A DNA stretch of 43,360 bases from Sediminicola sp. (lineage in GTDB: Bacteria > Bacteroidota > Bacteroidia > Flavobacteriales > Flavobacteriaceae): contig JBFIGS010000001.1 in the NCBI GenBank assembly GCA_041602195.1, positions 1 through 43,360 on the forward strand, given 5' to 3'. The translations under genes and the position numbers were made by a program. Under the pieces are notes generated by a model, which saw only the letters and a program-made list of their open reading frames with translations, was not told the DNA's origin and did no database searches. Shown in pieces: positions 41,714-43,360 of this stretch. The first letter of the stretch is position 1. Every line of letters starts with the position of its first letter.

Positions 41714-42400
41714 ATGTCCATATTAACCCCCTTGGAAAGATCACTTCAAAATTACAGCAGTGCTTTTATATCAATCTTGGAACCCTTTCTTTTGGAGCAC
41801 TATACGCCATTGGACCTATCTACGGAAAACACTTCTCTGGATGGGGTTGATATTACCAATGCAGAAGCTTGTCAAAGACATATAGATTCCATTTTGAGGA
41901 AGAATAGGGCAGAGGTAGCCTATGGTGGTTATTTGGAACAAAGAAACTTGTACAATGGGAACGGACATTTTTTAGCATCTGAAGATAAACGGAACGTTCA
42001 TTTGGGAATGGATTTTTGGGCCAAGGCAGGAACATGGGTGCGGGTGCCGATTGCCGGGAAGGTCCATAGTTTTAGGAATAATGATACTTCAGGCGATTAT
42101 GGTCCGACCATCGTTTTAGAACATATTTTAGAGGGGATTAAATTCCATACCCTCTATGGACATTTGTCCGTAGAATCCTTGAACGGACTGTTTGTGGGAA
42201 AAGAATATGTCAAGGGGGAAATACTTGCATCATTGGGGACGCCCGAAATCAACGTAAACTATGCCCCACACCTCCATTTTCAGATTATTGAGGATATAGG
42301 CGAATACAAAGGGGACTATCCGGGGGTTTCTACTACAAAAGAGTTGGAATATTTCGCCAACAATTGTCCGAATCCCAATTTTTTATTGAAGGTGAATTAG
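41714..42400 (+). CDS. M23 family metallopeptidase without signal peptide
   Basis: HLGMD (HxxxD), LYGHL, PHLHFQ (HxH). Confidence 0.88.
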   Translation: MSILTPLERSLQNYSSAFISILEPFLLEHYTPLDLSTENTSLDGVDITNAEACQRHIDSILRKNRAEVAYGGYLEQRNLYNGNGHFLASEDKRNVHLGMDFWAKAGTWVRVPIAGKVHSFRNNDTSGDYGPTIVLEHILEGIKFHTLYGHLSVESLNGLFVGKEYVKGEILASLGTPEINVNYAPHLHFQIIEDIGEYKGDYPGVSTTKELEYFANNCPNPNFLLKVN

Positions 42401-42408
42401 GGTCATAC

Positions 42409-42579
42409 CGATTAACTACCTATTAATCCGATAAGTGATTTTAACTTCAAATTCACTTATCGGATTTTTTTTGCACTTCAACCAAACTTTTGTCAATAGC
42501 CGAAAAATAAGGGGTTTGAGCGAGTTTAGAAGATCATAGCCTACATGCTGTGGTACCTTTACAGAACAAAACCCAAGTC
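42409..42579 (+). promoter_or_regulatory. Upstream region copy A (homologous to 43129-43304)
   Basis: Shares CGATTAACT, TTTGTCA, CCGAAAAATAAGGG and AACAAAAC at near-identical spacing with copy B. Confidence 0.65.
42425..42472 (+). terminator. Terminator-like hairpin, overlapping conserved upstream boxes of the next gene
   Basis: AATCCGATAAGTGA-N14-TCACTTATCGGATT running into a T-tract. Confidence 0.65.
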
Positions 42580-42828
42580 ATGAAAACTATTTTAACATTC
42601 GTCTTTATCCTTTTTATCGGAGTTGTTGCCCAAGCACAGGAAACAACAAATGACATTAAAGTTGAGAATGTTGAAACTACCATCGTTACTTCTAATACCT
42701 CTACCAAGTATAACGAAGTATCTACAGAGAACAACAACGAGGTTGCTCGTTTGTACAAGTTCAAAAATGCAAGAGTTTTGAAGGCTTTGACCTTTACTAC
42801 CAAAAGAAACAATGCTAAATTGGCCTAA
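42580..42828 (+). CDS. 82-aa secreted microprotein, paralog A
   Basis: ATG at 42580; Sec signal MKTILTFVFILFIGVVAQA; a paralogous start at 43305 with several synonymous differences supports coding. Confidence 0.85.
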   Translation: MKTILTFVFILFIGVVAQAQETTNDIKVENVETTIVTSNTSTKYNEVSTENNNEVARLYKFKNARVLKALTFTTKRNNAKLA

Positions 42829-42830
42829 TC

Positions 42831-42938
42831 ATGGTTGAAATCATTCTGAGTACTGGTTTACTGTATTATGTATATTCTGTAATAGCACCAAAACTTCACA
42901 AAAGGCACTTAAGAACCATAAAGGTTAGAAGCAAGTAA
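42831..42938 (+). CDS. Putative 35-aa single-TM microprotein
   Basis: MVEIILSTGLLYYVYSVIAPKLHKRHLRTIKVRSK; ATG 2 nt after the upstream stop; hydrophobic N-terminal half and basic tail. Confidence 0.5.
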   Translation: MVEIILSTGLLYYVYSVIAPKLHKRHLRTIKVRSK

Positions 42939-42999
42939 AAGACATCGATTCCTGAATACATAGGTGGACCTCTTAGGCAATGAAAGTTGATTTAGGCCG

Positions 43000-43101
43000 C
43001 TATTGCTTTTTGGATAGACTTCGGTGAGTAAGTAGGATGATATGACTAAATAGGTCCTTCCCATCGAAACTGTTCCTCGTAAAACACCCAAAAAGCAATA
43101 G
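43000..43101. repeat. Long imperfect hairpin closed by a perfect 14-bp inverted repeat
   Basis: CTATTGCTTTTTGG (43000-43013) pairs with CCAAAAAGCAATAG (43088-43101), with nested inner pairings. Confidence 0.7.
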
Positions 43102-43128
43102 GAAGTAATGTGTACGGTTATGCTGTAT

Positions 43129-43304
43129 CGATTAACTGCACAAAATATCGGTAACCGATATTTTGTGCCATTGCCGTTTGTCGACCTTTTATTACACTTT
43201 GTCCCATCCTTTGTCAGATACCGAAAAATAAGGGACTTTAGACGAATTACATCGAGTTCAAATACACAATGGGCGTTCTACTTATATAACAAAACGTTAC
43301 CATT
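43129..43304 (+). promoter_or_regulatory. Upstream region copy B (homologous to 42409-42579)
   Basis: Same ordered boxes as copy A, offsets within 1-2 nt. Confidence 0.65.
43138..43168. repeat. 31-bp palindrome
   Basis: GCACAAAATATCGGT-A-ACCGATATTTTGTGC. Confidence 0.85.
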
Positions 43305-43360
43305 ATGAAAGCCATCTTAACTTTAATCTTTGTTCTTTTTATCGGAGTTGCTGCCCAGGC
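43305..43360 (+). CDS. Partial secreted microprotein, paralog B, running off the window edge
   Basis: MKAILTLIFVLFIGVAAQ(A); 46/56 nt and 13/18 aa identical to the start of paralog A. Confidence 0.85.
   Translation, partial: MKAILTLIFVLFIGVAAQ

Follow-up and report, generated by a model that had tools for sequence, protein, structure and literature searches.

We analysed a window of 43,360 nucleotides (nt), the whole stretch of DNA considered here, which is the entire contig C1 (JBFIGS010000001.1) of a Sediminicola sp. genome assembly (GCA_041602195.1). At its end we found two tandem paralogous genes, copies A and B, for small proteins that combine a predicted signal peptide, a variable acidic middle and a cationic tail, together with a companion gene for a predicted membrane peptide directly behind copy A and a conserved non-coding module in front of each copy. 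The proteins belong to a family that is more than a chance pattern, as homologue counts and purifying selection show, and that has no described relative, no family assignment, no functional name, no domain and no structure. Three points are new: the companion gene, the conserved upstream module and the substrate-dependent expression of probable orthologues in Zobellia.

The numbers given in an earlier sequence-only reading of this DNA were all reproduced, namely the open reading frame (ORF) of 82 amino acids (aa), its 19/36/27 layout, the residue counts, the AQA site and the identity of the 5' ends of copies A and B in 46 of 56 nt. The signal peptide of copy A ends in the AQA site, the spacer contains 7 D/E, 2 K and 18 T/S/N (isoelectric point, pI, 4.06), and the tail has 8 K/R and zero acidic residues (pI 11.8); the mature protein is net-cationic (pI 9.5). 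All homologues in the alignment share the start at ATG 42580, and an upstream GTG at 42550 is not a conserved start (Table 1). The claim of at least a pair of paralogous genes holds as well: contig C165, which overlaps the last 141 nt of the window at 100%, contains the complete copy B of 82 aa (C165:86-334), and a DNA contig from run X1, which is probably the source sample, crosses the window end into a second tail-coding stretch. Copies A and B share 52 of 82 residues, 14 of 19 in the signal peptide, 13 of 36 in the spacer and 25 of 27 in the tail. Copy B thus keeps the cationic tail, the homologues conserve it and no characterised protein matches, which are the three points on which the sequence-only reading could have fallen. 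Its further suggestion of a possibly longer array did not hold in this assembly, in which tblastn and a mature-part profile (2 matches) detected only copies A and B; with a completeness of 93% in 444 contigs, the assembly may lack an unassembled further copy.

Table 1. Features at the end of the window (positions in the 43,360-nt stretch)
Feature	Position	Strand	Remarks
Copy A	42580-42828	+	82 codons + stop; ORF calls, homologue alignment
Copy A, predicted signal peptide	42580-42636	+	19 aa
Copy A, variable acidic Thr/Asn-rich middle	42637-42744	+	36 aa
Copy A, cationic tail	42745-42825	+	27 aa
Conserved upstream module, copy A	42406-42579	+	cross-genus blastn and alignments, 71 sequences
Sixth heptamer-like repeat (inverted), in signal-peptide codons	42612-42623	+	CG kept in 62/71
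Companion gene	42831-42938	+	35 codons + stop; ATG 2 nt past the copy A TAA
Variable spacer without conserved ORF	42939-43126	.	matches L002 only among L001-L030
Conserved upstream module, copy B	43127-43304	+	90-91% identical to G321 modules (blastn); also aligned
Copy B, first 56 nt, cut by contig end	43305-43360	+	whole gene = C165:86-334

Conservation across the family covers three parts of the protein: the signal peptide, a short beta-prone stretch near the start of the mature chain, and the final 28 residues. All else differs between members in both sequence and length, and mature chains comprise about 53 to 66 residues. Among 3000 pairs compared between loci, the ratio of non-synonymous to synonymous divergence (dN/dS) is 0.12 for the tail (dS 1.47), 0.29 for the middle (dS 1.64) and 0.19 for the signal peptide (dS 0.73), and A56, R57, L58, Y59, L70, F72, K75 and K80 are invariant in 35 sequences. 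Conservation is therefore concentrated in the C-terminal 27 to 28 aa, as had been proposed, although the alignment shows the signal peptide to be equally conserved at the protein level.

The signal peptide of copy A has the expected features of a Sec-type signal, which the sequence-only reading had recognised: Lys2 in a basic n-region, a hydrophobic core of 14-15 residues, the AQA site and Q20. An A-x-A motif followed by Gln at +1 occurs in about 92% of 134 unique sequences. The family proteins thus appear to fit a Sec and signal peptidase I substrate with predicted cleavage after AQA, and would follow the Q-rule of Bacteroidetes, in which, according to excerpts of PMC5837995 and PMC10653852, the +1 Gln that remains after signal cleavage is converted to pyroglutamate. 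Other export or modification types found no counterpart. Neither copy contains a Cys, so that a Braun-type lipobox with +1 Cys is absent. No C-terminal domain of the type IX secretion system (T9SS) was detected by Pfam above cut-off, the tail having 27 residues against the roughly 70-100 expected for such a domain, and the best NCBIfam hit, T9SS_sortase_N, reached 17.2 bits against a cut-off of 40 and lay over the signal peptide. The general Bacteroidetes O-glycosylation motif is not conserved in the spacer when inspected by eye.

AlphaFold2 gave low-confidence models, with a mean pLDDT (predicted local distance difference test score) of 62.7 for the full-length protein and 54.2 for the mature part alone; the full-length model contains helices at residues 3-17 and 64-81 and a disordered middle. 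The modelled mature chain therefore appears disordered, and the tail may fold upon binding. The mature protein contains no hydrophobic stretch, and its tail has a hydrophobic moment of 0.20-0.37 and a mean hydrophobicity of -0.2 to -0.36. These properties make a lytic antimicrobial peptide unlikely and, with the almost invariant tail, speak against the antimicrobial function that had been offered as one interpretation. Peptide toxins or pheromones that diversify fast would show the reverse of this near-invariant tail and of the similar gene neighbourhood seen across genera in the loci examined.

A word-indexed search returned 98 homologues of 45-144 aa at E<=0.01, and an exhaustive profile search with an alignment of the mature part found 244 cluster representatives at E<=1e-3, 85 of them at E<=1e-10. 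The best 150 of these 244 representatives are 46-171 aa long and match at or nearly at their C-terminus. A dedicated search revealed no longer protein with the tail, which is weak evidence by the tool's own account. Family members carry no public name or are called 'hypothetical', apart from clear cluster artefacts. In agreement with the earlier statement that no characterised family is recognisable, the main protein matched nothing above the cut-offs of Pfam, NCBIfam, PADLOC and PHROGs, and a profile search of the PDB with the family gave 0 matches at E<=10. The ESM Atlas contained only automatically named 'hypothetical protein' clusters and one 'putative GLPGLI family protein', with no common Pfam family, and a literature search with the family motif strings found no relevant paper.

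In the Flavobacteriaceae, 97 of 401 genomes match the family at E<=1e-3, and 73 of these have a best match of E<=1e-8; the 24 weaker genomes probably match by the signal peptide alone, because this profile included it. With the mature-part profile, 7 of 62 Flavobacteriaceae genomes were positive, whereas the 338 genomes sampled from 17 further families of the order gave 0 matches. The family was found here in Flavobacteriaceae only, and these are marine. Named carriers include Sediminicola, Zobellia (six species), Maribacter, Arenibacter, Ulvibacterium and Spongiimicrobium, and in the 16 genera represented at least twice in the hit table every listed genome is positive. At least 556 family stretches were confirmed by tblastn. 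Genomes contain 1-9 family matches (up to 9 in G071), often in tandem, and all but one of 109 copies detected by a regular expression lie on the same strand, the exception being a minus-strand match of 67 aa, which was left out as aberrant. Genome G321 has four copies at an exact spacing of 725 nt, and three copies in locus L004 differ mutually by no more than one residue. The arrays of G321 and G071 look dosage-like.

The assembly break at 43360 lies inside the repeated 5' end of copy B, and contigs of several relatives also start or end at family copies (G054:C27:8, G399:C16:26, G641:C4:4). Since contigs break at these genes, copy numbers in draft genomes are probably undercounts. A 386-nt DNA contig of run X1 joins a tail-coding end to the start of an upstream module via 297 different letters (42830 / 43127); given this different spacer, either a strain variant or an additional unit is present in the sample. 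The spacer of the window itself (42939-43126) is matched, among loci L001-L030, by the same-genus locus L002 only (84.75% over 42516-43304), and the compared loci have no ORF in common there. A 92-codon ORF lies antisense over copy A (42534-42812, minus strand), which we take to be a shadow frame of the conserved plus-strand gene.

The companion gene encodes a peptide with one predicted membrane helix and, after it, a short basic end. Its place and length are the same in the four Sediminicola-type loci, and other genera have, behind one family copy, a related ORF of 33-49 codons with a shared Pro/Lys-rich motif right past the helix. This genome has a single match (E 5e-17), and the companion occurs in 37 of 401 Flavobacteriaceae genomes (E<=1e-4), mostly as one copy each. 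Without exception these 37 belong to the strongly family-positive 73, and 0 of the other 328 carry it, a co-occurrence that comes from related genomes and is not an independent statistic. A family copy lies upstream in the available DNA for 40 of 48 unique companion sequences; the gap is <=100 nt in 31 of them, where the companion starts 2-74 nt downstream, 101-400 nt in 2 and >400 nt in 7. In Zobellia (L065 7131-7836 and other loci), the companion lies 590-710 nt behind the second copy and not directly after it. The companion-linked copy belongs mostly to a paralogue class of 84-85 aa and is of the A type in this genus. With a dN/dS of 0.175 at a dS near saturation and no match in Pfam and NCBIfam, the companion is a conserved, apparently undescribed gene for a predicted single-pass inner-membrane peptide.

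Upstream of every copy, about 170-180 nt align across genera, both by blastn and in alignments. Several blocks of this module are near-invariant among 71 sequences that are less than 85% identical. Six blocks resemble one heptamer of the form TCGRTAA, in forward orientation at about -173 and -153 and inverted at about -120, -80, -59 and +39, and their CG core is kept in 51, 69, 68, 70, 69 and 62 of the 71 sequences, respectively. By our own arithmetic, the spacings between blocks are near whole helical turns. In the module of copy A, the repeats lie at about 42408-42415 and 42427-42435 (forward) and at 42456-64, 42499-42506 and 42516-42525 (inverted), and the +39 block falls within the signal-peptide codons. 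Synonymous sites of signal codons 5-14 (42592-42623) are almost fixed, a single Leu codon accounting for 112 of 117 cases and a single Gly codon for 116 of 122, which implies a constraint on the nucleic acid in this stretch; synonymous codons in the tail vary freely. The same stretch holds one heptamer-like repeat and a near-match to the flavobacterial -7 box.

We infer that the module provides DNA-level regulatory sites for a protein, because an RNA structure is unsupported and a fixed sigma-A box is missing. RNAalifold predicted almost no consensus structure for the regions -190..+30 (consensus -0.66 kcal/mol) and -190..+90. Blocks 2 and 3 form an inverted repeat (42426-42438 / 42453-42465); this hairpin pairs in 87% of cells, and since 163 of 500 shuffles reach its covariation score, its RNA covariation does not exceed that of shuffles. 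A riboswitch or leader was supported neither by these tests nor by Rfam, and the palindrome in the copy B module, which gave the sole, sub-threshold Rfam match, is not a member of sroD (25.6 bits against a gathering score of 50). TAnnTTTG, the sigma-A promoter motif of Bacteroidetes according to an excerpt of PMC9723704, occurs with <=1 mismatch at no upstream alignment column in a quarter or more of the 71 sequences. A sigma-70 scan yielded 0 promoter-like sites and, as its only terminator-like site, one on the minus strand inside copy A; by eye, the blocks fit neither a sigma-54 -24/-12 nor an extracytoplasmic function (ECF)-type promoter. Elsewhere in this genome the blocks occur inside coding regions only and upstream of no other gene, so that no wider regulon was found.

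The gene directly upstream of copy A encodes an M23-family peptidase without an obvious signal peptide (41714-42400, plus strand). Of 65 related loci, 16 have an M23 homologue in the corresponding place and on the same strand, with a median distance of 184 nt. The inverted repeat of blocks 2 and 3 lies 26 nt past the M23 stop and has a T-run (42465-42472) behind it; it may terminate the M23 gene. Downstream of copy B, C165 carries three convergent genes for an amidohydrolase, an M14 carboxypeptidase and a membrane HisKA_2 histidine kinase (C165:4606-5820, minus strand). A survey of 533 flanking ORFs of 65 loci revealed no constant neighbour. As regards the earlier suggestion that an anionic pro-piece might mask a cationic core, the genes have no linked processing enzyme or exporter. 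The neighbours differ by locus and include MsrA, M23, GDSL lipase, a MacB/FtsX ATP-binding cassette transporter, amidohydrolase, M14 and sulfatase. In the loci examined, the family genes keep a similar neighbourhood across genera, and the flanking genes look like shared synteny rather than a pathway. Ten of the 65 loci (Sediminicola, Zobellia and Arenibacter; for example L034, L050, L056, L065 and L078) have HisKA_2 membrane kinases no more than 6 kb away, frequently as several paralogues.

Zobellia loci have the order epimerase, MsrA, Malectin/Big_1-domain protein (the gene named lipoprotein in Zobellia tables), copy, copy, companion, kinase, oxidoreductase, kinase, kinase. This order (L050/L065) matches ZGAL_2931-ZGAL_2941 of Zobellia galactanivorans as named in the available parts of two supplementary tables. 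ZGAL_2935 and ZGAL_2936 are thus the probable two copies and ZGAL_2937 the probable companion, assigned by gene order and not by sequence. According to the available part of PMC9296495 (Supp. Table 3), ZGAL_2936 has a log2 fold change of +6.0 on Fucus (P 3e-24) and +4.9 on Ascophyllum (P 4e-19), both versus alginate, of +2.5 on Fucus versus a fucose-containing sulfated polysaccharide fraction (FCSP; P 1e-3) and of -2.5 on Laminaria versus maltose (P 7e-4). Our own subtraction of these values places alginate about 4 log2 units below maltose for this gene. In the same source, ZGAL_2935 changes by +3.1 on Fucus and +2.5 on Ascophyllum versus alginate, and the kinases ZGAL_2938 and ZGAL_2940 rise in the same two alginate contrasts (+2.6/+2.3 and +2.1/+2.3), while the upstream genes msrA3 and ohrB behave differently. 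The text available from PMC9296495 does not discuss ZGAL_2935/2936, both are absent from the available part of the PMC5613140 microarray table, and no main text was found to contain ZGAL_2933/2935/2936, in a search whose supplements were those of PMC5613140 and PMC9296495. General literature searches on Zobellia likewise yielded nothing about these genes.

We favour, with a probability of roughly 0.35, the reading that the family proteins are exported envelope proteins that act on their producer, with the tail as a docking motif and the companion as membrane partner of one paralogue; this function is predicted. Sec would export a largely disordered mature protein of about 63 residues, and signal cleavage after AQA would leave a +1 Gln for conversion to pyroglutamate by the Q-rule. 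The near-invariant cationic C-terminus would then be a binding motif that does not lyse membranes but attaches the protein to some conserved part of the envelope of the cell that made it, with the acidic variable middle serving as a spacer. The companion inner-membrane peptide could be the membrane partner of the copy A product. Each unit would be a separately regulated gene, the six heptamer-like repeats acting as protein-binding sites, and envelope protection, a stress response or the modulation of a membrane protein are possible roles. We prefer a partner within the producer because of the residue-specific invariance of the tail, the genus-consistent presence of the family, the similar neighbourhoods, the near-identical copies within arrays and the disordered, hydrophilic chain.

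Several observations weigh against this reading. Docking of the tail on an envelope component is a prediction, and the neighbouring genes, which vary between loci, give no functional hint. Signal cleavage is read from the sequence only, and the high conservation of the signal could mean a retained membrane anchor. Detected in 37 of the 73 family-positive genomes, and for the most part downstream of a single paralogue class (84-85 aa), the companion cannot be an obligatory partner of every copy; moreover, its conserved motif lies on the predicted cytoplasmic side, away from the exported protein. A small gene with a tiny membrane gene is a layout that also fits a toxin-immunity pair. The assignment of ZGAL_2935/2936/2937 follows gene order instead of sequence, and RNA run X20 yielded two thin contigs on the window (depth 2-3, one ending 42 nt upstream of the copy B ATG), too thin for conclusions on expression or a start site.

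Asr, Spy and CpxP of enterobacteria are small disordered proteins of the periplasm that serve in stress or in the envelope. Like the family as predicted here, they are Sec-exported, small, poorly structured and partly basic, work on the envelope of the cell that makes them and are under strong regulation, but there is no sequence relationship (nothing above cut-off in Pfam/NCBIfam at E<=1), and the family differs in its restriction to Flavobacteriaceae, its multiple tandem copies, its acidic spacer with invariant tail and its linked membrane micro-gene. The pre-pro peptides Phr/PapR of Firmicutes share the Sec signal, the variable pro-region and the conserved C-terminal part; the family, in contrast, has no adjacent receptor gene (533 ORFs, 65 loci), a diderm host, and a conserved part of 27-28 residues without pherotypes. 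The companion alone resembles MgrB, AcrZ and SafA, inner-membrane regulatory peptides that likewise span 30-50 residues, consist of a single helix with a short charged end and often escape annotation, yet it has no homology to them in Pfam and NCBIfam and is coupled to the gene of an exported protein.

A small toxin gene next to a gene for a tiny membrane protein is the classic toxin-immunity layout, and the exported product could accordingly be a Sec-dependent bacteriocin-like toxin, the 35-aa membrane peptide its immunity protein and the companion-less paralogues extra alleles protected in trans. The small, net-cationic product (mature pI 9.5), the tandem paralogues with divergent middles, the tiny membrane-protein gene that in 31 of 40 cases follows one copy at a distance of 2-74 nt and the strongly condition-dependent expression, which depends on the synteny-based assignment, would all suit such a pair. 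Sec-dependent class II bacteriocins (enterocin P, lactococcin 972; microcin V/Cvi) indeed share the signal peptide, the small cationic product, the paralogue arrays and the downstream small membrane gene. We nevertheless regard this explanation as unlikely: the mature chain, which AlphaFold2 models as disordered, has no hydrophobic, strongly amphipathic or membrane-active segment, the tail is nearly invariant over many genera in similar, syntenic neighbourhoods and thus neither patchy nor diversifying, and the companion, missing in about half of the carriers, stands behind one paralogue per genome with its conserved part predicted to be cytoplasmic. Furthermore, no outer-membrane exporter is linked to the loci and PADLOC finds nothing. 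A module resembling type I toxin-antitoxin systems, in which the non-coding DNA would be a structured leader and/or antisense RNA controlling a small toxic membrane peptide, seems very improbable. The genes of type I toxins, including the signal-peptide-bearing TimP of Salmonella, are likewise small and multi-copy, lie between long stretches of conserved non-coding DNA and encode small hydrophobic products, and the stand-alone units with their long non-coding stretches, the synonymous constraint at the 5' end of the coding region and the size and shape of the companion (one helix and a basic end, like known type I toxins) are in line with this idea. Evidence for RNA structure, covariation or antisense RNA was not obtained, however, no Rfam family matches, the conserved module precedes the main gene and not the companion, the similar neighbourhoods across genera do not look mobile, and the 63-residue hydrophilic part that dominates the main product is unlike type I toxins. 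An uncleaved N-terminal segment would turn the product into a small signal-anchored inner-membrane protein, possibly packed helix-to-helix with the companion. A signal as conserved as the tail, with half the synonymous divergence of the rest of the gene (dS 0.73 as against 1.47-1.64), is unusual for a disposable signal and could indicate such an anchor, but the hydrophobic core of just 14-15 residues and the canonical A-x-A with Gln at +1 in about 92% of sequences make it quite unlikely, and the synonymous constraint suggests a cause at the nucleic-acid level in a stretch that holds a heptamer-like repeat.

Small proteins are known to regulate kinases, as in the case of MgrB, SafA, CpxP and ExoR. 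The exported protein or its released tail could be a periplasmic ligand or modulator of the nearby HisKA_2 kinases, with the companion as a second small modulator. Such kinases are present in this genome and, at 10 of 65 loci, are found no further than 6 kb away, a near-invariant disordered motif suits a protein-protein interface, and ZGAL_2938/ZGAL_2940 rise, in the available expression table, in the same contrasts as ZGAL_2935/2936, with msrA3 and ohrB differing. Yet no such kinase is found within 6 kb in the other 55 of the 65 loci, where linkage exists it may be plain synteny, no response regulator is linked, and the common expression pattern is weak evidence, as many genes are low on alginate; a low probability is all that we would grant this explanation. 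In a more far-reaching version, the invariant cationic end, as an autocrine periplasmic ligand, and the membrane peptide would set the activity of the neighbouring HisKA_2 kinases and the six-repeat module would close a feedback loop, with changes of up to 64-fold between algal substrates; such a new envelope signalling module of marine Flavobacteriaceae is a rather doubtful prospect. The proteins might also be secreted matrix or adhesion factors, whose cationic end binds extracellular polyanions such as alginate, sulfated glycans or extracellular DNA. The carriers Zobellia, Maribacter, Arenibacter, Ulvibacterium and Sediminicola include alga-associated polysaccharide degraders (PMC9296495), the likely Zobellia orthologue is, in the expression table of that paper, lowest on alginate and alginate-rich Laminaria, and the middle is rich in the beta-prone residues Val, Thr and Ile. 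We consider this function improbable, since there is no evident outer-membrane route and no T9SS C-terminal domain above cut-off, and since the residue-specific invariance of the tail (Tyr, Phe, Asn, Thr) exceeds what charge-based binding needs. A small but appreciable chance remains for something else altogether.

Carriers of this family include model degraders of algal polysaccharides in coastal carbon cycling. Within them the family stands out, being kept in every listed genome of the positive genera with up to nine matches, and its tail is among the most conserved short motifs in these genomes. The synteny-based assignment points to a 16- to 64-fold swing between growth substrates. If its function proves dull, it would be one more conserved hypothetical family. 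The companion gene and the repeat-studded module provide concrete handles for study, and if the favoured reading is true and the tail docks on a conserved component of the envelope, the family would point to a new piece of Bacteroidota envelope biology.

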